Sequence record: KP869113
Direction: 5' to 3' (one strand)
Source of the DNA: Escherichia coli O157 typing phage 15
DNA: 64,000 nucleotides
Shown: piece after piece, positions 25,620 through 36,133 of the stretch
Layout: each line of letters opens with the position of its first letter
How positions within the stretch are numbered: position 1 is the stretch's first letter
Notes under the pieces: model-generated
What the model was told of the DNA's origin: nothing
The model's input: the letters and a program-made list of their open reading frames with translations, nothing else
The model's database searches: none
Made by a program: the position numbers and the translations under genes

Positions 25620-27236
25620 TCAACGTCTAAGCCCCTCATATGGGTTTCCTCTCACTAAATCTGTGTGAGCACCCATTGATGGTGGCTTGAATAATTTAAC
25701 TTCGTTAAGACTGTTGAAAGCATCACTGGTAGCATCCACTTGGTCATCTTTAGTTTTACCATCACCACAAAAGCCTTCAAGCTCTTGAAAGTAAGCTTCA
25801 TTCCAACTACCTCTCAAGACTTTTACAAGTCCAGCTTCAGAAGCAGCAGAAAATCCCGCAAAGCGGGTAACTTTATCTTTATTTGTTGGTTTGGCTCTTG
25901 CACGATAACCTTTCTCGGCAAGTTTCCTGATGAGGGATGTTGCGTAGGATTTACCAGCAGCGCCTGGGTCTTGAGGGATAAAAATACCAGTTCGCTTACC
26001 GTCACTTTCAGCAGTCAAATTAATTTGTGTTTCGACTCCAGAGGGTCTATCTCTAAATCTTACTACATCAATGATATAATAGCAACCGTCTTTTTTAGAT
26101 TTACCCATCTTAACACCTGCTGTCCAGTCTGGATTAGGGTTAATCTCAGATGGTAAAGTTGCTGCTAAGTCCCATGCTCTAACATCAAATACATCTTCTG
26201 GTAGTGAATCAACAATTTCACACCATTGTCTTTGCCAATAGTTTGAACCTTCTGCACGAGCCTTCCAGTTACCGAAACGAAGTCTTGCAACGTTTACAGG
26301 GGTGTTGTTTTCCAACTTACCACGGTACTTAGGCTCTAAGAAGTCAAGGATTGGGTTATCATCAATCGTACCAGAGATAAAGGTGTATGTTTGAGGAATC
26401 TCAAGAGGGAACATTTCAAGAATCTTGTCTCTCTCCCAATCAGAAACCATCACACCATCGTTCATTACATACCAACGAATACGACCACACTTTTCAGGGT
26501 CTGGATAACCTTCTTCATCTAAGAATGGCTCTACCCAATCGTAAATAAAGTGGTCTCTGTCTGGGTTCATAGAAATCTTCATGTATGAATCACCTTCAGC
26601 ACCAGAACGTAGACGGGTTTGTAGGTATGAAATCTGTGAAGCAGAGAAGTGTGTACCTTCGTCAAAGTAAATAGCTGAGTATTCAATACCCTGATGACCT
26701 TCAGCGTGCTTTTCAAGTTCTAGGTAGGTAAACTTGATAGTTGCCCCAGAAGGGAATGTGATAGTCATTTTCTGCTCGTGAGGAATCCCACCAAACTTAC
26801 CAAATAGTTTCTTTGCAGCAGGCCATAAACCACCTTGTAGCTGTGTTGTATTTCGACGGAAATATACAGCATTATAGTTAGGGTCTTCAATAAATCTTAA
26901 AGAGTCCATTAACAATGCAGCAGTTTTACCAGCACCAGCAGCACCACCATAAAGAACCAAGTCAGCATTAGTGTTTAAAAAGACCTCTTGAGAACCCGGC
27001 TGAGGGGCTACATAATTCTTATCAGTCATCAATTTAAAGATAAGGCGAACTTGGTCTGGTGTGTATCTTAATAAAGTCAGAATTTGAGTTGGAAGGAATT
27101 TAGAGGGGTCTTTACCGAATGATTTGATAATTTCTTTTACTTCATCAGAAAGCCCCAACTCTCCAGCTAGGACTTTCCTAACATCTTCCACTCGCTTCTG
27201 CTTAACAGCATTTAAGTCCATTAAGCACCTCCGCAA
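25620..27236 (-). CDS. Terminase large subunit
   Basis: Walker A VLYGGAAGAGKT near N-terminus; 538 aa; first large gene of late operon. Confidence 0.8.
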   Translation of the reverse strand: MRRCLMDLNAVKQKRVEDVRKVLAGELGLSDEVKEIIKSFGKDPSKFLPTQILTLLRYTPDQVRLIFKLMTDKNYVAPQPGSQEVFLNTNADLVLYGGAAGAGKTAALLMDSLRFIEDPNYNAVYFRRNTTQLQGGLWPAAKKLFGKFGGIPHEQKMTITFPSGATIKFTYLELEKHAEGHQGIEYSAIYFDEGTHFSASQISYLQTRLRSGAEGDSYMKISMNPDRDHFIYDWVEPFLDEEGYPDPEKCGRIRWYVMNDGVMVSDWERDKILEMFPLEIPQTYTFISGTIDDNPILDFLEPKYRGKLENNTPVNVARLRFGNWKARAEGSNYWQRQWCEIVDSLPEDVFDVRAWDLAATLPSEINPNPDWTAGVKMGKSKKDGCYYIIDVVRFRDRPSGVETQINLTAESDGKRTGIFIPQDPGAAGKSYATSLIRKLAEKGYRARAKPTNKDKVTRFAGFSAASEAGLVKVLRGSWNEAYFQELEGFCGDGKTKDDQVDATSDAFNSLNEVKLFKPPSMGAHTDLVRGNPYEGLRR

Positions 27237-27242
27237 ATAGAA

Positions 27243-27443
27243 TTATTCAGAGTCTGTAGCAGTCTCTTCTTTCTTAACTTCGAACTTTGCATCAACAGCA
27301 TCAAGAAGTGCATCCATAGATGCTTCTTTAATATCAATACCTGTTGCTACAGACAATCTGTCTGCAATTGCCATGATAGTATTCTGCATAAATTCTAGCT
27401 TTTTATTAGCTTCATAAAGTTCTTTATAAACGGTCTCGCTCAT
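27243..27443 (-). CDS. Small protein upstream of terminase (66 aa), possible small terminase subunit or head protein
   Basis: ORF with GGAGA RBS; helical, acidic C-terminus. Confidence 0.35.
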   Translation of the reverse strand: MSETVYKELYEANKKLEFMQNTIMAIADRLSVATGIDIKEASMDALLDAVDAKFEVKKEETATDSE

Positions 27444-27479
27444 TATGTTTTCTCCAAATAGTTAACCATGTTTCCCCTT

Positions 27480-27503
27480 AAAAAAGACGGCACAGAGACC
27501 GTC
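27480..27503 (-). terminator. Rho-independent terminator between tRNA array and late operon
   Basis: Minus-strand GACGGTCTCTGTGCCGTC followed by TTTTTT. Confidence 0.55.
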
Positions 27504-27562
27504 AAGGAGAAACCACAATGTACGTCAGAGACATACTGTATAAGTCTTCCTATAAAGTATAA

Positions 27563-27625
27563 CTCTGTAAAAAAGCCCTGTCTAAAAATACTCTTCGGTA
27601 GCGAAAGGAAGAATACTTATAGCAG
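27563..27625 (-). terminator. Long hairpin terminator at the 3' end of the tRNA array
   Basis: Minus-strand GCCCTGCTATAAGTATTCTTCC...GAAGAGTATTTTTAGACAGGGC followed by TTTTTT. Confidence 0.5.
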
Positions 27626-27665
27626 GGCATTATTATTATTTTAATTGAGAGAGAGTAAAATAACT

Positions 27666-27741
27666 TGGAGAATCCGAAGGGACTCGAACCCTTATAAACC
27701 TGTTTTGCAGACAGGCACATAGCCGTTTCTGTCACGGATTC
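27666..27741 (-). tRNA. tRNA-Cys (anticodon GCA)
   Basis: Acceptor GAATCCG/CGGATTC, T-arm GGGTTCGAGTCCC, anticodon stem CCTGT/ACAGG loop CTGCAAA, CCA encoded. Confidence 0.7.
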
Positions 27742-27745
27742 AAAT

Positions 27746-27838
27746 TGGAGGAAGATACCAGACTTGAACTGGTACACCGATTTCTCAGCTACTGGCAGTT
27801 TAGCAAACTGCTCCCTTACCTTTTAGGGTTAATCTTCC
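27746..27838 (-). tRNA. tRNA-Ser (anticodon GCU), long variable arm
   Basis: 93 nt; acceptor GGAAGAT/ATCTTCC, anticodon stem GCAGT/ACTGC loop TTGCTAA, T-arm CCAGTTCAAGTCTGG. Confidence 0.7.
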
Positions 27839-27840
27839 AT

Positions 27841-28575
27841 TTATTTCTGTAATGCGTTCTTCATTTCTGGTGTTGCAATAGTGTCAATTACACCAGTTTT
27901 ACAAGCATCATCAAACCAGTCTGGTAAGATACCTGCTAAGAACCCATTGATATTCGTTTTAAGGTACTCTGCAATAAGAGCAGCTTCTTCTTCAATCATC
28001 TGCACAACTTCATCTGCATAAGCTGTAATTTTTGAAATACCTTCATTAATCTTACTAACAGCTTGCTCAGCTAAATCAGAAATAGTATCAAGACCTTTGT
28101 CAATAGCATCTTGTAAGTCACTTAACACACCATTAACACTATCTAGTGCACTGTTAATCGTATCAATAGCTTTTTGACCATACTCTGTAGCAACACCCAT
28201 AATACCACTAAATGGTGTACAGCCAACTTGTTCACCTGCTGCACCCATAACATTAGAGTAACCTTTTGCTACCTGCATACGTGATGAAAACTCATCAATG
28301 GACTTTTGACCGTAATCTGTTAGTGTTTTGGTAGTTGATGTAGTGCTTGTCAGACTCGTGGTAAAGCTGTTAAGCAGAACTGTTGTAAGTCCAGCAGCAA
28401 CAATCTTATCCTTTACTGTAGGGTCTGATACAGAACTAATAGAGCTTACAAGTGATGTAGAGGCAGCTACGGTTCCACCGAGAACTGCTGCACCAGTAAT
28501 AAGGGGGTTAGAAAACCCTTTACCGGTTTTTAAGAGATTGAAAATCTCCTTACCTTGTTCTGTCATCTCTTTCAT
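27841..28575 (-). CDS. Hypothetical protein embedded in the tRNA array (about 244 aa)
   Basis: Track ORF 27841..28638 overlaps tRNA-Phe at its 5' end, so start moved to an internal ATG (28575 or 28566); Ser/Thr-rich, no recognised motif. Confidence 0.4.
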   Translation of the reverse strand: MKEMTEQGKEIFNLLKTGKGFSNPLITGAAVLGGTVAASTSLVSSISSVSDPTVKDKIVAAGLTTVLLNSFTTSLTSTTSTTKTLTDYGQKSIDEFSSRMQVAKGYSNVMGAAGEQVGCTPFSGIMGVATEYGQKAIDTINSALDSVNGVLSDLQDAIDKGLDTISDLAEQAVSKINEGISKITAYADEVVQMIEEEAALIAEYLKTNINGFLAGILPDWFDDACKTGVIDTIATPEMKNALQK

Positions 28576-28591
28576 TAAGCACCTTTGAAAT

Positions 28592-28667
28592 TGGTAGTCC
28601 AGTGGGATTTGAACCCTCTTCTCATGTTTTTCAGACACGCGCTTTAACCATATAAGCTACTTGGACT
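28592..28667 (-). tRNA. tRNA-Phe (anticodon GAA)
   Basis: T-arm GGGTTCAAATCCC, anticodon stem CGTGT/ACATG loop CTGAAAA. Confidence 0.6.
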
Positions 28668-28673
28668 ATAAAT

Positions 28674-28749
28674 TGGGGTGACCTACGGGATTTGAACCCG
28701 TATAGACCATGTTCACAGCATGGGTCATTACCATTTATGATAAGGCCAC
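28674..28749 (-). tRNA. tRNA-His (anticodon GUG)
   Basis: Acceptor GTGGCCT/AGGTCAC, T-arm ACGGGTTCAAATCCCGT, anticodon stem CCATG/CATGG loop CTGTGAA, CCA encoded. Confidence 0.65.
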
Positions 28750-28780
28750 ATTTAAGGACTCTCGTAAGAATCCTTAGAAG

Positions 28781-28856
28781 TGGCAGCGGCATAAGGATTT
28801 GAACCTTAATAGGACAGCTTCAGAGACTGCTGCATTGCCAGTTATGCTATACCGCT
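28781..28856 (-). tRNA. tRNA-Gln (anticodon CUG)
   Basis: Acceptor AGCGGTA/TGCCGCT, D-stem GCAT/ATGC, anticodon loop CTCTGAA, T-arm TAAGGTTCAAATCCTTA, CCA. Confidence 0.65.
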
Positions 28857-28861
28857 AAATT

Positions 28862-28940
28862 TGGTACTCCATATCGGATTCGAACCGATACATAACACAG
28901 ATTTTAAGTCTGGCCTCTCTGCCAATTGGAGTAATGGAGC
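28862..28940 (-). tRNA. tRNA-Leu (anticodon UAA), tentative; short variable arm
   Basis: Acceptor GCTCCAT/ATGGAGT, T-arm ATCGGTTCGAATCCGAT, anticodon loop CTTAAAA; D-arm CCAATTGGCAGAG as in the other Leu-type tRNAs. Confidence 0.5.
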
Positions 28941-28942
28941 AT

Positions 28943-29018
28943 TGGCGGGGGATGTTGGAATTGAACCAACTTCTTCGATTTCAAAGACCGAGGTTTTAAC
29001 CTTGTAAACTAATCCCCT
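28943..29018 (-). tRNA. tRNA-Gln (anticodon UUG)
   Basis: T-arm GTTGGTTCAATTCCAAC, anticodon stem TCGGT/ATCGA loop CTTTGAA, CCA encoded; possible 1-72 mismatch. Confidence 0.6.
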
Positions 29019-29026
29019 TTAAATCT

Positions 29027-29362
29027 TTACTTTCTTAGTGGATGAATAAAGAATGCCAACATAACTCTTTCCCTTGAAAATGCTCTTTCTTCTGGGACAA
29101 CACTTTTAAGTTTCCACCCAACATAAATTCTCCAGTAAAATTGTTTACCAAAGATTTTGATTGACGGCACAAAAGCGAATAATCCCCAAGCATTACTGTT
29201 CCACATTAGGAGATAACCAGTCTGATTATCTTCAGGGTTAGAACTTACGTTGATATTACCTTTCCACTTAGTAACATCTTTTACATCTCTTCCTAATACA
29301 TGGTAAGAGAAGTTATAAGCTTTGTTTCTCCAGAGCCATCCAACTCTCTGCATGTAGACACC
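29027..29362 (-). CDS. Membrane protein, 5' part lost in N gap (same gene as window 1..299)
   Basis: ORF 29027..29353 is the C-terminal part; 29286-29362 is identical to window 1-77. Confidence 0.45.
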   Translation of the reverse strand, partial: GVYMQRVGWLWRNKAYNFSYHVLGRDVKDVTKWKGNINVSSNPEDNQTGYLLMWNSNAWGLFAFVPSIKIFGKQFYWRIYVGWKLKSVVPEERAFSRERVMLAFFIHPLRK

Positions 29363-30082
29363 NNNNNNNNNNNNNNNNNNNNNNNNNNNNNNNNNNNNNN
29401 NNNNNNNNNNNNNNNNNNNNNNNNNNNNNNNNNNNNNNNNNNNNNNNNNNNNNNNNNNNNNNNNNNNNNNNNNNNNNNNNNNNNNNNNNNNNNNNNNNNN
29501 NNNNNNNNNNNNNNNNNNNNNNNNNNNNNNNNNNNNNNNNNNNNNNNNNNNNNNNNNNNNNNNNNNNNNNNNNNNNNNNNNNNNNNNNNNNNNNNNNNNN
29601 NNNNNNNNNNNNNNNNNNNNNNNNNNNNNNNNNNNNNNNNNNNNNNNNNNNNNNNNNNNNNNNNNNNNNNNNNNNNNNNNNNNNNNNNNNNNNNNNNNNN
29701 NNNNNNNNNNNNNNNNNNNNNNNNNNNNNNNNNNNNNNNNNNNNNNNNNNNNNNNNNNNNNNNNNNNNNNNNNNNNNNNNNNNNNNNNNNNNNNNNNNNN
29801 NNNNNNNNNNNNNNNNNNNNNNNNNNNNNNNNNNNNNNNNNNNNNNNNNNNNNNNNNNNNNNNNNNNNNNNNNNNNNNNNNNNNNNNNNNNNNNNNNNNN
29901 NNNNNNNNNNNNNNNNNNNNNNNNNNNNNNNNNNNNNNNNNNNNNNNNNNNNNNNNNNNNNNNNNNNNNNNNNNNNNNNNNNNNNNNNNNNNNNNNNNNN
30001 NNNNNNNNNNNNNNNNNNNNNNNNNNNNNNNNNNNNNNNNNNNNNNNNNNNNNNNNNNNNNNNNNNNNNNNNNNNNNNNNNN
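29363..30082. other. Assembly gap (720 N); true content is probably represented by window 77-721
   Basis: N run; flanks 29286-29362 and 30083-30160 match window 1-77 and 722-797. Confidence 0.9.
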
Positions 30083-30151
30083 CTCACTAAAGGACTTGAA
30101 CCTTTTTCTTCATCTTGTAAGGGTGATGTTTTACCATATAAACTAAGCGAG
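30083..30151 (-). tRNA. tRNA-Val (UAC), 3'-truncated duplicate of 716..790
   Basis: Identical to window 722-790; 3' end lies in the gap. Confidence 0.5.
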
Positions 30152-30248
30152 TATGAAAGAGGTCTGAAGTTGTGCCGCTAACTCAACTTCGTGGAATTTG
30201 TTACGGTCTTCAGTTGACTCAAAGCGGTCTTTCACTTGACCTCTGAAT

Positions 30249-30324
30249 TGGTGCTCCCACAAGGACTCGAACCCTGATAAGTTGCTTACAAGGCAACCGT
30301 AATAACCAATTATACGATAGGAGC
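30249..30324 (-). tRNA. tRNA-Thr (anticodon UGU)
   Basis: Acceptor GCTCCTA/TGGGAGC, T-arm CAGGGTTCGAGTCCTTG, anticodon stem GTTGC/GCAAC loop CTTGTAA, CCA. Confidence 0.7.
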
Positions 30325-30331
30325 ATTAATT

Positions 30332-30406
30332 TGGAGCATCCAGAGGGAATCGAACCCTCAACCTCAGTTTGGAAGACTGTAATTTTCCCGTTTAAACTAT
30401 GGATGC
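30332..30406 (-). tRNA. tRNA-Gly (anticodon UCC)
   Basis: 75 nt; acceptor GCATCCA/TGGATGC, T-arm GAGGGTTCGATTCCCTC, anticodon loop CTTCCAA. Confidence 0.65.
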
Positions 30407-30412
30407 ACTAAT

Positions 30413-30488
30413 TGGTGGAGTCACTGAGAATTGAACTCAGTTCCCAAGTTTGCAAAACTCGAATTTTAACCATATAAACTATGACCCC
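30413..30488 (-). tRNA. tRNA-Ala (anticodon UGC)
   Basis: Acceptor GGGGTCA/TGACTCC with G3-U70 wobble (Ala identity element), anticodon stem CGAGT/ACTTG loop TTTGCAA, T-arm CTGAGTTCAATTCTCAG, CCA. Confidence 0.7.
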
Positions 30489-30494
30489 ATTGTT

Positions 30495-30570
30495 TGGTAC
30501 AGGTGGAGGGAATTGAACCCATCGTCTTACTGATTAAGAGTCAGCCGCATAACCATTTTGCTACACCTGC
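30495..30570 (-). tRNA. tRNA-Lys (anticodon CUU); atypical T-stem
   Basis: Acceptor GCAGGTG/CACCTGT, anticodon stem GCTGA/TCAGT loop CTCTTAA; T-arm ATGGGTTCAATTCCCTC pairs only 3 bp canonically. Confidence 0.5.
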
Positions 30571-30577
30571 ATTAATT

Positions 30578-30654
30578 TGGTACACCTAGAGAGATTCGAA
30601 CTCACACTGAGCAGATTCTAAGTCTGCTGCCTCTACCAGTTGGGCTATAGGTGC
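30578..30654 (-). tRNA. tRNA-Leu (anticodon UAG), tentative; short variable arm
   Basis: 77 nt; acceptor GCACCTA/TAGGTGT, anticodon stem GCAGA/TCTGC loop CTTAGAA, T-loop TTCGAAT, CCA; D-arm CCCAACTGGTAGAGG. Confidence 0.5.
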
Positions 30655-30912
30655 ATTAAATCTTTTTAGAGAACTTCTAAGAACCTGAGCAACAAGGTTC
30701 CACAACAAGCGACTAATAACCTTAGAAGCCCTCTAAAAAGACCTAAATAGGTCTTTGCATAGTCTTGTTTAATCCGGTGACTAGAACCTTTGGAGAGCTT
30801 GATATTATCTCTTCTCCGTGACACCTACTAGGTGTTTTATCAGTGTGTACAACAATACACGCGGTATACCAAAGCAACATCCGAATGAAGCTTGGCTTTA
30901 AATCTTATTAGG
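30655..30912 (-). ncRNA. Structured spacer in tRNA array (candidate stable small RNA)
   Basis: 258 nt with no tRNA and no ORF of 60 aa or more; four local hairpins (GAACC..GGTTC, GACCT-AAAT-AGGTC, CACCT-ACT-AGGTG, GTGTA..TACAC). Confidence 0.3.
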
Positions 30913-31000
30913 CGGTAAGTAAAGGAGTCGAACCCTCACCGTATCTCTACAGTGGCAACTGTTTTCAAGACAGTTTGGCTACCATTAGCCGCTACCTACC
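30913..31000 (-). tRNA. tRNA-Ser (anticodon UGA), long variable arm; CCA not encoded
   Basis: 88 nt; acceptor GGTAGGT/ACTTACC, anticodon stem ACTGT/ACAGT loop CTTGAAA, T-loop TTCGACT. Confidence 0.6.
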
Positions 31001-31013
31001 CCTAATAAGACTG

Positions 31014-31418
31014 CTAAATACTTAACAGTCCTGCATGAACTTTCCTATGACAGTTTGAGCAAAGCACAACACACTTACGAACTTCACGCTTAATAGTTCC
31101 CCTAGAGTAAGTCTTAAGATTGCTTGGAGCAAAATCTTTCTCTTTAGGGTCTAAGTGATGAAAATCTAAAGCTACTGGCTCGGATTCACCACATATTCTG
31201 CATTTGCAAAACTTTTTATATCTACTAAGGAACTCTCTGTTTCTCTTTTTGTCATATTTTGCTCTAACTTTCCTTTTTGCTTTATAAGTAGGGTCTTCTT
31301 TGTATCTCTTTGCTGAGTACTTAGCTTTACAATCTTTGCAAGCAGACTGATAGCCATTCCCTCTTTTATGAAAGCAACTTAAAGGCTTCTCTTGAGAACA
31401 TTTTCTACAAAGTTTCAT
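31014..31418 (-). CDS. HNH homing endonuclease inserted in the tRNA array
   Basis: N-terminal CxxC...CxxC zinc ribbon; C-terminal HNH motif DFHHLDP...LCSNCHRKVH; lies between tRNA-Ser and tRNA-Trp. Confidence 0.75.
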   Translation of the reverse strand: MKLCRKCSQEKPLSCFHKRGNGYQSACKDCKAKYSAKRYKEDPTYKAKRKVRAKYDKKRNREFLSRYKKFCKCRICGESEPVALDFHHLDPKEKDFAPSNLKTYSRGTIKREVRKCVVLCSNCHRKVHAGLLSI

Positions 31419-31432
31419 ACAAGCACCTTTTC

Positions 31433-31503
31433 TGGCAGGGGTGTAGAGATTCGAACTCTAATCAAGAATTTTGGAGACTCTATTGCTGCCATAGCTCACC
31501 CCT
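31433..31503 (-). tRNA. tRNA-Trp (anticodon CCA), compact (71 nt)
   Basis: Acceptor AGGGGTG/CACCCCT, T-arm TAGAGTTCGAATCTCTA, anticodon stem AGAGT/ATTCT loop CTCCAAA, CCA encoded; short D-arm. Confidence 0.55.
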
Positions 31504-31651
31504 ATTAAAACTATAATTCGAAGCTTACCGTATTATCTCAACACTGTAAAGCCCCTTCTCAGATTATTTACATGTTCTGGAAAACATGAGATACAGACCA
31601 CCTCCCTACAGGAAGACCCGCTTAGGTCGTCTAAGTAATCTGCTAACTAAT
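31504..31651 (-). ncRNA. Structured spacer without canonical tRNA (candidate small RNA or degenerate tRNA)
   Basis: 148 nt; hairpin CTTAG-GTCGT-CTAAG; contains ATTCGAAG but no pairable T-stem or acceptor. Confidence 0.25.
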
Positions 31652-31728
31652 TGGCACACCCTACAGGATTCGAACCTGTAACTAACGATTTAGAAGACCG
31701 TTGCTCTATCCAATTGAACTAAGGGTGC
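31652..31728 (-). tRNA. tRNA-Arg (anticodon UCU)
   Basis: Acceptor GCACCCT/AGGGTGT, D-stem GTTC/GAGC, anticodon stem ACGGT/ATCGT loop CTTCTAA, T-arm ACAGGTTCGAATCCTGT, CCA. Confidence 0.7.
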
Positions 31729-32003
31729 ATTAACATTTTAAAGGGTACTCATTGCATTTAAGCCAAGCCCCATAAGGGATACCCTTTAGAATGTTGCCCA
31801 CCTTATTAATCATACCGTGGGCTAGTACGCCAAATTCTTTGATGAGGGATTGGAAGACCTCACTGGTGTTTAGCCTATCAAGCTACTGCCAGAAAAACAT
31901 TGTCGTTTGCATTTATTTTAAATTTGCAAAATAGACGCTACGCAACGAAAACTAAGGTTACTATAAAGTAGTCACATCTCAATGTCAACAACTTTATTGA
32001 AAT
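31729..32003 (-). ncRNA. Structured 275-nt spacer in tRNA array (candidate small RNA and/or internal promoter)
   Basis: No tRNA, no long ORF; hairpins AAGGGTA..TACCCTT and TTTGCA..TGCAAA. Confidence 0.25.
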
Positions 32004-32079
32004 TGGTACTGGTAGGTGGAATCGAACCACCGATGTTCCCTTATCAGGGGAGTGTTATAACCTTCTTAACTATACCAGC
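32004..32079 (-). tRNA. tRNA-Ile (anticodon GAU)
   Basis: Acceptor GCTGGTA/TACCAGT, T-arm GGTGGTTCGATTCCACC, anticodon loop CTGATAA, CCA. Confidence 0.65.
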
Positions 32080-32080
32080 T

Positions 32081-32157
32081 TGGAGGTTCAGATGGGAATC
32101 GAACCCACATTCATAGGGCTTATGAGACCCTTGCATTACCTTATCTGCGACTGAACC
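32081..32157 (-). tRNA. tRNA with anticodon CAU (Met, or Ile2 if lysidinylated)
   Basis: Acceptor GGTTCAG/CTGAACC, T-arm GTGGGTTCGATTCCCAT, anticodon stem AGGGT/GCCCT loop CTCATAA, CCA. Confidence 0.6.
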
Positions 32158-32235
32158 AGAATAAGTACCCTAGTTAGAGAAACTGTTGAGTGGGTGTTTC
32201 CAGCCGCGCAGGTGTTTCTTAGTTAAGGGTGAATT

Positions 32236-32311
32236 TGGTAGAAGTGGAGGGATTCGAACCCATCGCCTGTCAGATTAAAAGTCTGCCGCATCACCATTCT
32301 GCTACACTTCC
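32236..32311 (-). tRNA. tRNA-Lys (anticodon UUU); atypical T-stem, paralog of 30495..30570
   Basis: Acceptor GGAAGTG/CACTTCT, anticodon loop CTTTTAA, T-arm ATGGGTTCGAATCCCTC with only 3 canonical pairs. Confidence 0.5.
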
Positions 32312-32317
32312 ATTAAA

Positions 32318-32457
32318 TTATCTTTGTAGATAAGCTACCCAGACTTGCTTAAGGTCTGTAGCGATGTGCCTTTTTGGGTTTAAATCTAGAATTTACCCTT
32401 TCACCCTTTGTGGTCGCATACTCACAGGTAAGCTTAATAACTTATCTACAAAGATAA
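32318..32457. repeat. 17-bp perfect inverted repeat (TTATCTTTGTAGATAAG / CTTATCTACAAAGATAA) enclosing a 106-nt core
   Basis: Arms at 32318-32334 and 32441-32457; core has no tRNA and no ORF. Confidence 0.6.
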
Positions 32458-32511
32458 TTACCAGACCGTTGTTTATCATCTTAAGTGCTACCATTACACC
32501 AACTCGACATC

Positions 32512-32536
32512 TGCCGAGTGAAGGAATCGAACCTTC
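32512..32536 (-). pseudogene. tRNA-like 3' fragment (T-arm plus acceptor 3' strand) with no identifiable 5' half
   Basis: Canonical T-arm GAAGGTTCGATTCCTTC followed by ACTCGGC, but no complementary acceptor strand, D-arm or anticodon arm upstream. Confidence 0.3.
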
Positions 32537-32740
32537 GCCTTTTCTTTACCGGAGAAATAGATTGTTTAAGTTTTGCTGTAAACGGTCTTCTGTAAATTTG
32601 TTGAGCCAGACCAAGTTTTAAATTTTTCAAAATTAAATTGGCTTGAAATTTTAAATAACTTGCTGTATTTGGTCTTCTGCTCCTTTAAAGAATACTCGTA
32701 AGAACCCTTTAAGGGAGGGGCTAAATAGCCCTCTCAAAAT

Positions 32741-32818
32741 TGGCGGTTACGAAGGGATTTGAACCCTCATCATCTCCCGTGACAGGGGAGTATTTTAACC
32801 AAATTAAACTACATAACC
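32741..32818 (-). tRNA. tRNA-Asp (anticodon GUC)
   Basis: Acceptor GGTTATG/CGTAACC, anticodon stem CTCCC/GGGAG loop CTGTCAC, T-arm GAGGGTTCAAATCCCTT, CCA. Confidence 0.7.
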
Positions 32819-32823
32819 TTTAT

Positions 32824-32911
32824 TGGTGTGCCGTGTAGGAGTCGAACCTACCGAGTCTCAATGACAAGGGATTTACAGTCCCCACCGCTACCATCTACGG
32901 GATAACGACAC
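32824..32911 (-). tRNA. tRNA-Tyr (anticodon GUA), long variable arm
   Basis: 88 nt; acceptor GTGTCGT/ACGGCAC, anticodon stem GGGGA/TCCCT loop CTGTAAA, T-arm GTAGGTTCGACTCCTAC, CCA. Confidence 0.7.
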
Positions 32912-32980
32912 ATTTAATTTCTATTCAGGCTAAGGACTTGTACCTTACAAATCGGTGAGCAATCGCTTCTCTCCTAAATT

Positions 32981-33057
32981 TGGCGGTTAGTCAGGGATTC
33001 GAACCCTGTGCCATTCGCTTAACAGGCGACCGCACATACCTTATGTGCTTCCTAACC
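32981..33057 (-). tRNA. tRNA-Asn (anticodon GUU)
   Basis: D-stem GCAC/GTGC, anticodon loop CTGTTAA, T-arm CAGGGTTCGAATCCCTG, CCA. Confidence 0.65.
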
Positions 33058-33141
33058 ATGTTTAGTATTACCAGACCGTATATTTCAATTTTTTCCGCTA
33101 AAAATTTAATAAATATTGCTGTAAACGGTCTTCTGTAAATT
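33058..33141 (-). repeat. Inter-tRNA spacer hairpin element (ACCAGACCGT ... ACGGTCTTCTG family)
   Basis: Stem arms AGACCGT/ACGGTCT around an AT-rich loop; minus strand also reads TTTACAGAAGACC (-35-like). Confidence 0.5.
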
Positions 33142-33218
33142 TGGAGGCGGGTGCAGGAGTCGAACCTGCCGATACCATGCTAATGAGACATGTGAGACGC
33201 CCTTTCTCTATACCCGCA
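33142..33218 (-). tRNA. tRNA with anticodon CAU (Met / initiator / Ile2 candidate), non-canonical features
   Basis: T-arm GCAGGTTCGACTCCTGC, anticodon stem CATGT/GCATG loop CTCATTA, CCA encoded; position 1-72 apparently unpaired. Confidence 0.5.
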
Positions 33219-33308
33219 ATTCTTAATGACCAGACCAAATATCTTCTTTGTCCGATTAACTTTCAGATGAGTAGATTAAGTTTGCTGTAATTGGTCTTCT
33301 GTCAAAAC
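33219..33308 (-). repeat. Inter-tRNA spacer hairpin element, second copy with compensatory changes
   Basis: Arms AGACCAA/TTGGTCT replace AGACCGT/ACGGTCT of the first copy, preserving pairing; minus strand reads TTGACAGAAGACC. Confidence 0.5.
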
Positions 33309-33386
33309 TGGCGTTCCAGAAGGGATTTGAACCCTCAAATATCCACTTTGAAAGAGTGGTGACTTTACCATTTTGTCTACTGGAAC
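33309..33386 (-). tRNA. tRNA-Glu (anticodon UUC)
   Basis: Acceptor GTTCCAG/CTGGAAC, anticodon stem CCACT/AGTGG loop CTTTCAA, T-arm GAGGGTTCAAATCCCTT, CCA. Confidence 0.7.
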
Positions 33387-33393
33387 ATTAATT

Positions 33394-33473
33394 TGGTCTC
33401 CGTTGAAGGATTTGAACCCTCGACCCCTTGCTCCCAAAGCAAGTGCTGCTAAACCAGACTGAGCTAAACGGAG
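33394..33473 (-). tRNA. tRNA-Pro (anticodon UGG)
   Basis: Acceptor CTCCGTT/AACGGAG, anticodon stem CTTGC/GCAAG loop TTTGGGA, T-arm GAGGGTTCAAATCCTTC, CCA. Confidence 0.7.
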
Positions 33474-33489
33474 ATAAACTTTTCAAACT

Positions 33490-33560
33490 TTATGTAACCA
33501 CTTTAACATTATTTTTTAGTGGTTGTCAAGAACTTTTTTAAAATATTTTTCAGCATCTTA
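33490..33560 (-). promoter_or_regulatory. Putative sigma70-like promoter for the tRNA array
   Basis: Minus strand reads TTGACA-17 nt-TTAAAG just upstream of the first tRNA; the -10 is weak. Confidence 0.3.
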
Positions 33561-33597
33561 GAAAAGCTCTCATTTCGTTTCTATGTAGAACATATTA

Positions 33598-33635
33598 AAG
33601 GGTATTAAACACATTGTCAATACCCTTTTTAAAAC
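33598..33635. terminator. Hairpin terminator downstream of the vWA gene
   Basis: AAGGGTATT-12 nt-AATACCCTT followed by T-rich tract. Confidence 0.5.
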
Positions 33636-33638
33636 TTT

Positions 33639-35054
33639 TTACCAGATATAACGGTCAATCATTACTGCTTTGAGCATTACACTGATTGGGTCAAACTTCT
33701 CACCACCAAGCAGAGCTTTTAAAGTGGCTGGAGAGAACCCTGATACCATTGCTACACCGTTATCCTTAACAGATACTTCGCAAGTACCATTACGGTTTGC
33801 TAAGTACCAGAATACCAGTTGTGGCATCTCATATCCAGCTTTTTTGTACTTACTCTGAATTGCTTCAAAGTTTGTACGACCGTTAGCTCCATCAACCTGA
33901 TTAAACTCCATATCGGAGAAGATGATAAGCTTACTTGGCATATCTTTCTGAGTCAAGTTGTTTCTTTTACCTGTTTCAAGAATGCGGTCAAAAGCTGCTT
34001 GTAAGTTAGTTGAGCCATATTCAACGTGTCGCATCACCTGACGATGACGGTTTCGTAAATCACCACTCAGTTCGATGAAGTGAGGGTTTGTTGAATAAAC
34101 CATCAACTCATTCTTAAAGCAACCTGTATTGCGTTCTGCTACATACAAGGCAAGTGATACACCAATATCCAGAGCAGTAATGGAGCCAAAATTCACCCAA
34201 GACATTGAACTTGATACATCAGACATACACAAGATGTTTTCACCTTCTGCCATCCAGTTTGGTAGTGCTTTCCACTGCTCATTAGCAACATCTGCATTAC
34301 CATACTTGACAGATTTAATCACATCGTATGGGTAAACAGCACCAGCGTTAATCTTAGTCTCACCTTTTGATAAGGACTCGATGTAAGCTTTGTAACGCTC
34401 TCCATCTTTACGGTTAAACAGTTTTTGGTAACGTGCAGCAGCAAGTGAAGGAATCTTACTGTAGTCAATCTTACCAAACTCATTAGCAGAGATTTTTTGC
34501 TCAACTGTATCAGATAGTGCAGACAACAGTGTGCGGTACTCTTTCTCACTCAAGTTGGCAAACTTGCAGAAACGTTTTACAAACTGCTTATGACGTGGTT
34601 TGACTCGTGGTAACCACTTAGCCGCCAAACCTGCTGTTGCAGGGTCTAGTAATGCTGCTTCTAAATGTTTGAAGGCATCTGTCTCGAAACGAGTACCTAC
34701 GAAGATTTTGAAGTCATCAAAACGACCAAGTTCTGCAATCTTATCCATAATGCGAAGAACCTGCGTAGACTCTAAAACTTTGTCTTCAATCGCTTGAAGT
34801 AAAACAGCTCTGAAGGCTTTACGCTCACCCATACCTTCTCGTACATCTCGCATATGCAGTAAAATACGAACTGCAACATCAACATCCTCACGCAAAGCTT
34901 TGTAGAACAGGTCTGGTAAGATTTCTACATTGCTACGGCTTGAACCAGCAGCTTTGTAAAAGTCTACAAGAGCAGACATTGATGAAGTATGGTTTACAGC
35001 ACCATTTTCAGTTCGACCTGCATGAAGGTGCGCATGTTTAAATAACTCGCTCAT
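33639..35054 (-). CDS. vWA-domain protein with MIDAS motif and about 270-aa helical N-terminal domain (possibly Ro60/TROVE-like)
   Basis: C-terminal half has DxSxS MIDAS motif (MSDVSSSM) followed by hydrophobic strand typical of vWA fold; N-terminal half is helix-rich; immediately upstream of the tRNA array on the same strand. Confidence 0.55.
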   Translation of the reverse strand: MSELFKHAHLHAGRTENGAVNHTSSMSALVDFYKAAGSSRSNVEILPDLFYKALREDVDVAVRILLHMRDVREGMGERKAFRAVLLQAIEDKVLESTQVLRIMDKIAELGRFDDFKIFVGTRFETDAFKHLEAALLDPATAGLAAKWLPRVKPRHKQFVKRFCKFANLSEKEYRTLLSALSDTVEQKISANEFGKIDYSKIPSLAAARYQKLFNRKDGERYKAYIESLSKGETKINAGAVYPYDVIKSVKYGNADVANEQWKALPNWMAEGENILCMSDVSSSMSWVNFGSITALDIGVSLALYVAERNTGCFKNELMVYSTNPHFIELSGDLRNRHRQVMRHVEYGSTNLQAAFDRILETGKRNNLTQKDMPSKLIIFSDMEFNQVDGANGRTNFEAIQSKYKKAGYEMPQLVFWYLANRNGTCEVSVKDNGVAMVSGFSPATLKALLGGEKFDPISVMLKAVMIDRYIW

Positions 35055-35135
35055 ATTTTACTCTCTTCTCTCATTTGTTGTTTGATGTGACAGACTTTAG
35101 AGCAACTTTATAGAGTCTGTCAACATCTTTTAAAA

Positions 35136-35507
35136 TTATTTTTTAAGGGTTGCAACAGCAGAGAACGTTGGTTTGTTATCTGTCTGAGACTGACCACCGT
35201 TATCAGGAGTCTTCTTAGTGTCTGCTGCAATTGCTTTCATCTCACCTGCTGAGTGGGTCATGATAGTTTTACCGACTTCAATCATGCTCTTGATGGTTAC
35301 ATCGTCTGTGTTTAACCCGAACTCTGCAAGCTTAGCAGCGTCCCTTGTAACAATCGCCTCAAACAACTTTGCAGCAAACTCAGCAGAATTATCAATGGTC
35401 AGTTGAGCTTTTACAAGTGAGCTTTTGTTACGAGAGCCTTTTGGTCTTCCAGATGGGTTTCCAGACTGGCCTTTTTTAAACTGGCCTTTGTTTGTTCTGT
35501 TTTTCAT
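35136..35507 (-). CDS. Hypothetical basic protein (123 aa)
   Basis: ORF with KGQSGNPSGRPKG motif common in small phage proteins. Confidence 0.4.
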   Translation of the reverse strand: MKNRTNKGQFKKGQSGNPSGRPKGSRNKSSLVKAQLTIDNSAEFAAKLFEAIVTRDAAKLAEFGLNTDDVTIKSMIEVGKTIMTHSAGEMKAIAADTKKTPDNGGQSQTDNKPTFSAVATLKK

Positions 35508-35756
35508 TGGTATGCCTCTTATAAGACCTCTTAAAAGGCTTTTAAGATAAAAGATAGATATCCAGAAAGATATCTGTTTAAATAGCCTTTTTAGAGGAAC
35601 CTTTTAAGTTATCTTCTAAGTATTTATAAGCCTACACCTTGTCAAGTACTTTGTCAACAACTTTTTTAACTTGCAATAGTTCTTGACTTGTTGTATGGAT
35701 TACTGTACCATCTTACTTAAAGCTGTAGGTCTGCCTTGTTCTACAAAGGAGACTTA
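35508..35756. promoter_or_regulatory. Divergent intergenic control region
   Basis: Several TTGACA/TTGACT-like hexamers and palindrome AGATATC..GATATCT between divergently oriented gene blocks. Confidence 0.35.
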
Positions 35757-35918
35757 ATGAGAAAATCAAATAAACCGAAGAAAGGTAAGAATACCAATCA
35801 CTGTAAGGAATCCAAAAGGGTAGAGTTAATCTACTATTCATCCTCTGAAATTGGTCTGTACCTGTTCTTTCAAAATTACAGAAGACAAGAGGATTATCTA
35901 TGTGTAGTTCCCAATTAG
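35757..35918 (+). CDS. Small hypothetical protein (about 53 aa)
   Basis: ATG at 35757 preceded by AAGGAGA; track ORF 35736..35918 trimmed to the RBS-supported start. Confidence 0.35.
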   Translation: MRKSNKPKKGKNTNHCKESKRVELIYYSSSEIGLYLFFQNYRRQEDYLCVVPN

Positions 35919-36133
35919 AAATCGCAGATATTATAGATTTATATCAAACTGCAAAGAGTCATGGCTATATAACCTCAATTGGAAAGAATAGTCACTATGA
36001 TGCTTTGACTGGAATGTATTTCAGGGCAATGGCTCAATCTAGTGAACAACACTTAATGGTTTCTTCCAGTGAGTTTACTTCGTTTCTCTATTGCAGCAAA
36101 ATTATAAATCGCAGGAGAACTGAAAAATGCTAA
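35900..36133 (+). CDS. Hypothetical protein (77 aa)
   Basis: Track ORF in co-directional gene array. Confidence 0.35.
   Translation: MCSSQLEIADIIDLYQTAKSHGYITSIGKNSHYDALTGMYFRAMAQSSEQHLMVSSSEFTSFLYCSKIINRRRTEKC

Follow-up and report, generated by a model that had tools for sequence, protein, structure and literature searches.

Particles formed by the Ro60 protein and its Y RNAs are conserved from bacteria to humans, and their function is still poorly understood. To our knowledge, the phage cases examined so far are all ones in which the protein is annotated with TROVE. Here we analyze a locus in a 64,000-nt stretch of DNA from Escherichia coli O157 typing phage 15 (sequence record KP869113; the whole stretch is referred to as the window), which encodes a 471-aa protein of a different and much larger family (DUF2828/DUF7788) with a predicted Ro60 fold and, downstream of it, a separate class of Y-like RNAs, one of which is a permuted tRNA mimic. 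Our reading, to which we assign a probability of about 70%, is that this is a Ro60-type protein from a large, mostly phage-borne family that is a remote sister of TROVE Ro60, and that it has four small RNA partners encoded downstream in the tRNA operon.

In the bacterial and mycobacteriophage systems, Ro60 (Rsr) is a helical ring closed by a vWA domain that bears a MIDAS (metal ion-dependent adhesion site), and the genes of its partner RNAs YrlA and YrlB lie on the same strand, no more than a few kb away. YrlA comprises a T arm, a closed acceptor stem and a D arm, while the RNA ends form the protein-binding stem (PMC4201824). The search of Chen et al. (2014) was confined to genomes annotated with a TROVE protein (PMC4201824). 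The phiRo60 protein of Thermus phage phiLo, which is accompanied by Yrl1 and Yrl2, consists of HEAT repeats (residues 25-306), a vWA domain (316-477) and a terminal helix (478-492) (Hu et al. 2025, PMC12135203; PDB 9kop/9l5y). Complexes of Ro60, Y RNA and PNPase are known (PMC12135203, PMC4201824), and phiRo60 itself binds PNPase (PMC12135203). An orthologue of the window protein, gp130 of phage Bas63 (Felixounavirus JohannRWettstein), was noted as Ro60-like in the 2024 PhageMaP preprint, where some tRNA genes were guessed to be Y RNAs (bioRxiv 10.1101/2024.10.10.617714).

The window locus shares with the Rsr systems the predicted ring closed by a vWA/MIDAS domain, the position of the RNAs on the same strand, a long RNA with a permuted tRNA-like domain (T arm, closed acceptor stem, D arm and an optional V hairpin) and an end stem carrying a motif near the 5' end, as in YrlA, and shorter RNAs lacking the tRNA module, as in YrlB. 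It differs in that the protein is composed of DUF2828 and DUF7788 rather than TROVE and vWA_Ro60, with a shorter N-terminal domain (~270 aa), and in that four or five RNA units are embedded in a tRNA array instead of an rsr-rtcBA operon. The domain sizes of phiRo60 match those of the window protein, but phiRo60 is named a TROVE-domain protein and the two share no significant sequence similarity (E 1.5, confined to the MIDAS). The Bas63 preprint pointed at annotated tRNA genes and identified no RNA, whereas the units described here lie in spacers and are not annotated tRNAs. That the protein resembles Ro60 has thus been recognized before, in annotations and in this single preprint, while what appears to be new is the cognate RNA family, with its anatomy and breadth. 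A full-text literature search, which did not extend to the 22-phage supplementary list of Chen et al. (2014), turned up this preprint as the one directly relevant paper and none describing the Y-like RNAs of the window.

Predicted fold and family of the protein

A preliminary description of this DNA, made from the sequence alone, credited the protein with a vWA domain bearing the MIDAS motif DVSSSM and with a helix-rich N-terminal domain of ~270 aa, and likened the whole to Ro60-type proteins; all three proposals find support. The motif (D-x-S-x-S) occupies residues 279-284, and the MIDAS is complete, because D279, S281, S283, T349 and D381 are invariant in an alignment of 59 homologues. The AlphaFold2 model built from the same 59-sequence alignment (mean predicted local distance difference test 89.9, predicted template modeling score 0.89) places ~17 helices within residues 1-270; residues 274-455 form an alpha/beta vWA fold, and a C-terminal helix follows at the end. 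The HEAT-repeat ring that the preliminary description had suggested looking for is predicted here: the alpha-helical repeats form a horseshoe, and the vWA domain with its intact MIDAS completes the ring, which is the arrangement that characterizes the Ro60 fold.

In a Foldseek search of the PDB with this model, the top nine matches are all Ro60 proteins (those of phiLo, Xenopus and human, and Deinococcus Rsr), aligned end to end with E 2e-8 to 4e-6 and template modeling scores of 0.50-0.65. After a gap in the ranking come proteins matched over the vWA domain only, and Ro60 is the only full-length fold match. The same ranking bears on the idea that the protein is a vWA cochaperone or chelatase of the MoxR, CoxE or BatA-like type, whose helical domain resembles Ro60 superficially. 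This is scarcely credible, given that the vWA-only folds rank below Ro60, that no AAA+ gene lies nearby and that there are no Pfam or NCBIfam matches to such families.

By sequence, a Pfam scan (E ≤ 1) of the protein returns only DUF7788 (PF25043; 1.7e-43, 149 bits against a curated cut-off of 27) and DUF2828 (PF11443; 3.8e-29, 102 bits against 29), and PHROG 850, described as 'RNA-binding protein', matches over the full length at 5.8e-184. An NCBIfam search for TROVE gives noise only, and the sole trace in sequence searches of the PDB (phmmer and profile) is the insignificant match at the MIDAS of 9kop/9l5y mentioned above. With no significant TROVE match in Pfam, NCBIfam or the PDB, the relationship is revealed only by fold comparison. 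Profile-profile alignment (hhalign) against a 28-sequence TROVE profile seeded on Bxz1 gp220 yields a probability of 80% (E 1.4e-5, 193 columns), limited to the vWA domain and the helix just before it; three motifs are in register there (YPYDV with HPINV, DVSGSM, and VSGFS with VSGFD). From the predicted Ro60 fold and this vWA-limited match, the protein is probably a distant homologue of TROVE-family Ro60, yet by sequence it lies outside the TROVE family.

The DUF2828/DUF7788 family contains 6,956 cluster representatives at E ≤ 1e-10, and homologues of the 471-aa protein are present in 709 records of sequenced phages, including Felix O1-, KVP40-, A511- and Twort-like phages; they cover Felixounavirus and phages of Mycobacterium, Vibrio, Listeria, Staphylococcus, Campylobacter, Enterococcus, Bacillus and Aeromonas. 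Depositors have annotated the orthologous gene as 'hypothetical protein', 'DUF2828 family protein' or 'vWFA protein', and RefSeq as 'RNA-binding protein'; some mycobacteriophage homologues already carry the annotation 'Ro-like RNA binding protein'.

Y-like RNA units among the tRNA genes

The preliminary description also noticed structured spacers that are not tRNAs and a tRNA-like fragment in the neighboring tRNA array, and proposed them as RNA partners of the protein. Such spacers are indeed present, and it is in them, not in the annotated tRNAs, that Y-like RNAs are found. The pattern AGAAGACCNNNTACAGCAA occurs four times against 0.07 expected, always on the strand of the protein gene. Four units (A-D, Table 1), each flanked by tRNAs or by another unit, lie in inter-tRNA spacers 333-1182 nt downstream of the gene on the same strand, within the limits (about 4 kb, same strand) set by Chen et al. 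(2014) for a candidate Y RNA. When folded, they share a closing architecture, and the differences between them are compensatory. A 4-bp outer stem is followed by an AGA bulge opposite a single G, by the 7-bp helix P1 and then directly by UACAGCAA, which is invariant after the 5' strand of P1; the terminal pairs of P1 are conserved, and an A/G mismatch accompanies the bulge. P1 and the outer stem each occur in more than one complementary version. Units A, B and C (the short form) close a variable A/U-rich loop.

Table 1. Features of the window. R1 and R2 are covariance models of the long and short unit, respectively, built from distant loci.
Feature	Coordinates	Strand	Details
Gene of the 471-aa protein (predicted Ro60 fold)	33639..35054	-	ATG start; DUF2828 + DUF7788 family; PHROG 850; wV8 gp47
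Y-like unit A, short	33222..33306	-	fills tRNA-Glu to tRNA-Met spacer exactly; outer stem UGAC/GUCA; AGA bulge; P1 AGACCAA/UUGGUCU; UACAGCAA; R2 32.2 bits, E 6.5e-5
Y-like unit B, short	33060..33140	-	fills tRNA-Met to tRNA-Asn spacer exactly; outer stem UUAC/GUAA; P1 AGACCGU/ACGGUCU; UACAGCAA; R1 31.8 bits, E 9e-4; R2 26 bits, E 1.9e-3
Y-like unit C, short	32598..32684	-	outer stem GAGC/GCUC; P1 AGACCAA/UUGGUCU; UACAGCAA; R2 29 bits, E 3.6e-4
Y-like unit D, long, YrlA-like	32457..32594	-	P1 and UACAGCAA enclosing permuted tRNA-like domain; R1 62.8 bits, E 1.2e-9
Candidate fifth element E	32312..32460	-	spacer after unit D; multi-branched fold closed by ~24-bp helix
85-aa open reading frame antisense to C and D	32364-32621	+	annotated as hypothetical proteins (wV8 gp48)
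tRNA array	27666..33473	-	25 tRNAs (ARAGORN); interrupted by HNH endonuclease gene and 720-N assembly gap
tRNA-Pro	33473-33394	-	165 nt past the stop codon of the 471-aa reading frame
Sigma-70-like promoter candidate	35094..35123	-	TTGACA-18-TAAAGT; 40 nt before the start codon; consensus match only
Two sigma-70-like promoter candidates	33620-33592, 33529-33500	-	past the stop codon, before tRNA-Pro; consensus match only
DUF5681 protein gene	35136-35507	-	123 aa; upstream neighbor
HNH endonuclease gene	31014-31418	-	inside the tRNA array
Aberrant tRNA-Trp	31433-31503	-	71 nt; anticodon at position 30; Rfam 33 bits
Structured spacer	30655-30800	-	predicted ~26-bp hairpin, z -3.5
Structured spacer	31729-31878	-	predicted multi-hairpin region, z -2.8
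100-N gaps	798-897, 1426-1525, 1908-2007, 2734-2833
720-N gap	29363-30082		in the tRNA array

Since units A and B fill their tRNA-to-tRNA spacers exactly, tRNA processing would release both, with RNase P cutting at the 5' end of the next tRNA and 3'-end trimming of the previous one. For units C and D, the ends are less clearly marked.

The tRNA-like fragment of the preliminary description corresponds to unit D, and the Rfam tRNA model scores 22-23 bits there (32519-32569 and 32512-32620, minus strand). Its interior begins with a short stem (CUUA/UAAG) and a 5-bp anticodon-arm-like hairpin (UUUCU-CCGGUAA-AGAAA), continues with a T arm (GAAGG-UUCGAUU-CCUUC) and a 7-bp acceptor-like hairpin closed by a tetraloop (ACUCGGC-AGAU-GUCGAGU), and ends with UG followed by a D arm (GUGU-AAUGGUA-GCAC). 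A circularly permuted tRNA-like domain is thereby enclosed by an end stem, as in YrlA. The tRNA-like arms, the score of the tRNA model, the few GenBank records that call unit D tRNA-Thr or tRNA-Met, and the occurrence of pseudo-tRNAs in phage tRNA arrays would also suit decayed tRNA genes, or small mobile or duplicated array repeats, that have no function as RNA. We regard this as very improbable: the permuted order of T arm, closed acceptor stem and D arm is not produced by tRNA decay, the short units retain P1 and the motif with no tRNA parts, and compensatory changes keep the structure across phages whose proteins are 38-47% identical.

The spacer after unit D folds at -48 kcal/mol (z -7.2; 0/200 shuffles fold as well), and its hairpin CAGAC-CUUAAGCAA-GUCUG resembles a minimal P1 plus motif. 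Six pairs show compensatory changes relative to Mooglevirus and Suspvirus, where both the closing helix and the hairpin are kept. Element E, an uncertain member of the system, could be a fifth partner RNA or serve in processing.

None of the listed GenBank records annotates the units as Y-like RNAs; most have nothing or antisense 'hypothetical proteins', and a few have a tRNA for unit D. The region of units C and D is present in 251 phage records, and 30 sampled records have no feature, an antisense reading frame or occasionally tRNA-Thr or tRNA-Met. The same four units are present in Bas63, where none is an annotated tRNA; they lie in spacers, with C and D under the antisense 'hypothetical protein' coding sequences bas63_0137/0138. 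The antisense annotations over units C and D are probably spurious calls over RNA genes.

Recurrence of the units beside homologous genes

For comparison, 80 viral loci encoding homologues of the protein were sampled, 5 from Felixounavirus and 75 distant (protein 38-47% identical). The exact Felix-type motif (AGAAGACC...GGTCTGG) is confined to the Felixounavirus loci and absent from the distant ones, and a structure-based detector (T arm, closed 6-7-bp hairpin, D arm) was therefore written. It finds 23 matches on the gene strand and none on the opposite strand; 18 of these domains have a flanking complementary stem and a (C/A)NGCA(A/G) motif. The flanking stems vary between phages yet stay complementary, while the motif (U/A)N(C/A)(A/C)GCAA is kept, reading UACAGCAA in the window and UUCAGCAA or CCGCAA elsewhere. 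A loose 'stem + CAGCAA' pattern was too noisy (500 gene-strand and 283 opposite-strand matches) and was replaced by covariance models.

Two such models, R1 (long form, 29 bp) and R2 (short form), were built from distant loci only, with the window held out. Unit D, which MAFFT misplaced, was omitted from the seed and is therefore an independent test sequence; four short units that had been misaligned by one column were left out of the R2 seed. On the window, R1 detects unit D over its full length and unit B, the rest being tRNA-junction noise of ≤26 bits, and R2 (128 kb on two strands, E ≤ 10) detects exactly units A, B and C, so that together they recover all four. The covariance-model search of the spacers proposed in the preliminary description is thus positive with models from distant phages; it is negative for the Rfam families, in that scans of the whole window at gathering thresholds and of positions 27000-36000 at E ≤ 10 give no Y_RNA or YrlA match.

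Across 81 sources, all 48 R1 matches and all 92 R2 matches lie on the gene strand. At least one unit is present in 50 of the 75 distant loci (96 distinct units). The nearest unit is ≤500 nt from the gene in 36 of the 50 positive loci and ≤100 nt in 22, compared with roughly 6% (an estimate) for random placement in the ~16 kb flanks. A 148-kb phage and Klebsiella phage phi1_175008 show the same order of gene, short and long units and tRNA array, as does, without the array, mycobacteriophage Samty (R1 74-84 bits). tRNAs are present in 33/75 distant loci (44%), but tRNA-free loci (L008, L013, L022, L041, L043, L050, L058 and L068) still have units beside the gene, which argues that the units are linked to the gene and not merely to tRNAs. 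In the control tRNA region of phage T5 (NC_005859, 28-42 kb; 25 tRNAs and 8 stable RNAs), the best scores are only 23.8 bits with R1 and 18.4 bits with R2, and this result led us to reject the notion that phage tRNA arrays carry such units in general. The T5 RNAs (RNA1/2/3, RNAI/III/IV) resemble the window units as small structured RNAs among phage tRNAs, presumably matured with them, but are unmatched by R1 and R2. Eight 'stable RNAs with unknown functions' are annotated in T5, three of them called tRNA-like, and they are unrelated to the window units.

Covariation is strong. In the alignment fitted to the model, paired cells make up 88%, compared with 55% for shuffles and 35-43% for slid controls; 27/29 pairs show double changes, and in helix P2, which was unused in sequence selection, 5/5 pairs covary. 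In the Ounavirinae (Mooglevirus, Suspvirus), the loops have diverged around an unchanging P1 and motif. The acceptor-like hairpin is fully compensated (ACUCGGC/GUCGAGU, ACACGU/GCGUGU, ACCCUUC/GAAGGGU), and UUAC/GUAA of one outer stem is replaced by UUGC/GCAA.

Several results weigh against the proposed Ro60-Y RNA partnership. The TROVE (PF05731) and vWA_Ro60 (PF25045) profiles of Pfam, with which the preliminary description meant the protein to be compared, have no match to it at E ≤ 1 (the positive control Bxz1 gp220 is found at 9e-50 and 4e-54, respectively), and the helical N-terminal domain shows no sequence-profile similarity to Ro60 in the hhalign comparison with the TROVE profile. The Ro-binding motif of YrlA, GNCGAAN0-1G (a putative Rsr contact), is absent from the window units, which have UACAGCAA. 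The YrlA model RF02553 gives unit D no score at E ≤ 10 even in a 191-nt search. With R1 and R2, 25/75 distant loci gave no unit, and Vibrio phage phi-pp2 (locus L085) has no convincing one. The E-values in Table 1 come from a short calibration and are rough. The covariance model seeds were chosen by the structure-based detector, which makes pair counts on the seeds partly circular. Finally, gp130 of Bas63 alone, on a plasmid or inserted in T7, rescues T7 from the ppl defense (bioRxiv 10.1101/2024.10.10.617714).

As for the YrlA model, RF02553 finds the accepted YrlA of Bxz1 where expected (190 nt upstream of the TROVE gene) with a score of only 32.5 bits against a gathering score of 69, which for phage RNAs is therefore a strict threshold. 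RF02553 also matches the sister RNAs of Samty and the Klebsiella phage over the full model at 34-38 bits, below threshold. Conversely, R1 recognizes only the tRNA-like core of the Bxz1 YrlA and not its stem. Since RF02553 misses unit D and R1 misses the Bxz1 stem, the window RNAs are, to judge from their sequences, a divergent branch of the YrlA kind with a presumed protein-binding module of their own.

The rescue by gp130 speaks for a reading in which the protein acts alone as a defense inhibitor, its MIDAS face perhaps binding Ppl or a host factor, while the spacer repeats are unrelated processing or stability signals of the tRNA operon. Deletion of gp130 leads to minute plaques on the ppl host, which complementation restores (bioRxiv 10.1101/2024.10.10.617714), and T7 plaquing is restored without any Bas63 RNA; anti-ppl activity therefore needs no phage Y-like RNAs. 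vWA/MIDAS domains are, moreover, classic protein-protein adhesion modules (PMC12135203), and with 44% of DUF2828 loci near tRNA genes the co-location could be partly indirect. On the other hand, most positive loci, those without tRNAs included, have units no farther than 100-500 nt from the gene, and the T5 tRNA array has none; an invariant UACAGCAA with a covarying helix and freely diverging loops looks like the signature of a specific binding site; and Samty and the Klebsiella phage likewise combine a Ro60 fold with a YrlA-type RNA. Action by the protein alone is thus unlikely in our view, and it is compatible with RNAs that serve as regulators, since it excludes only an obligatory role. The sufficiency of gp130 suggests that the RNAs may regulate or retarget the protein rather than being required by it.

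Possible role and genomic setting

If the protein and the RNAs are partners, the module of P1 and UACAGCAA would be the protein-binding site on the outer surface, by analogy with the Y RNA stem on the outer rim of Ro60. The tRNA-shaped module of unit D may recruit host factors that recognize tRNA, such as PNPase, by analogy with known Ro60 complexes, or tRNA-processing or -modifying enzymes. The ribonucleoprotein could then redirect host RNA decay or repair during infection and so contribute to counter-defense. We put forward more tentatively, and consider somewhat doubtful, the wider proposal that DUF2828 proteins and UACAGCAA-motif RNAs form a second, widespread and mostly phage-borne Ro60-Y RNA branch, in which the RNAs are matured by the tRNA-processing machinery, the particle is a counter-defense or RNA-surveillance device that captures host nucleases or tRNA-handling enzymes through tRNA-shaped or A-rich modules, and the RNAs tune or retarget the anti-ppl activity.

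The Bas63 orthologue (bas63_0130) is 97% identical to the window protein over 471 aa with shared synteny, and Bas63 is a tractable coliphage with an existing ppl phenotype. With exact RNA coordinates and a defined candidate binding motif, regulation of a Ro60-type protein by Y RNAs in phage-host conflict is directly testable.

With Felix O1-like coliphages and Salmonella phages (274 records, among them wV8 and O157 typing phages), the window region shares 97-99% identity. The gene was initially described as directly upstream of the tRNA array on the same strand, which the position of tRNA-Pro and the minus-strand orientation of the 25 tRNAs confirm. The two promoter candidates between the stop codon and tRNA-Pro (Table 1) are, as sequence matches, the likely start of the tRNA and Y-like RNA transcript. 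The DUF5681 protein encoded upstream has a basic, glycine-rich N-terminus, and its gene also adjoins the Ro60-like gene in wV8 and Bas63.

Within the array, the aberrant tRNA-Trp adjoins the HNH gene and is flagged as a pseudo-tRNA in wV8. The two structured spacers listed last among the RNA features in Table 1 match neither Rfam families nor R1 and R2, and a weak Rfam 'tmRNA_permuted' match at 31878-62, which overlaps tRNA-Ile, was set aside. The window is a scaffolded draft, in which positions 1-797 duplicate the flanks of the 720-N gap (position 1 onward equals 29286 onward, and 774-797 equals 30136-30160). The true place of the genes for tRNA-Arg, tRNA-Leu and tRNA-Val at 556-790 is therefore inside that gap, where wV8 also has them.

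Another structured RNA found among phage tRNAs, ROOL, is comparable to the window units in setting and presumed co-maturation but is much larger and of unrelated fold. In Listeria phage LP-083-2 (NC_024383; L096 1429-1980), a ROOL match that narrowly misses the gathering score (87.4 bits, E 1.7e-16) is located ~1 kb upstream of the DUF2828 homologue; the same block contains tRNAs and genes for an HD phosphohydrolase and an RtcB-like RNA ligase. The ligase and phosphohydrolase genes are 1.3 kb from the DUF2828 homologue, an arrangement that echoes the rsr-yrlBA-rtcBA operon of Salmonella for RNA repair.

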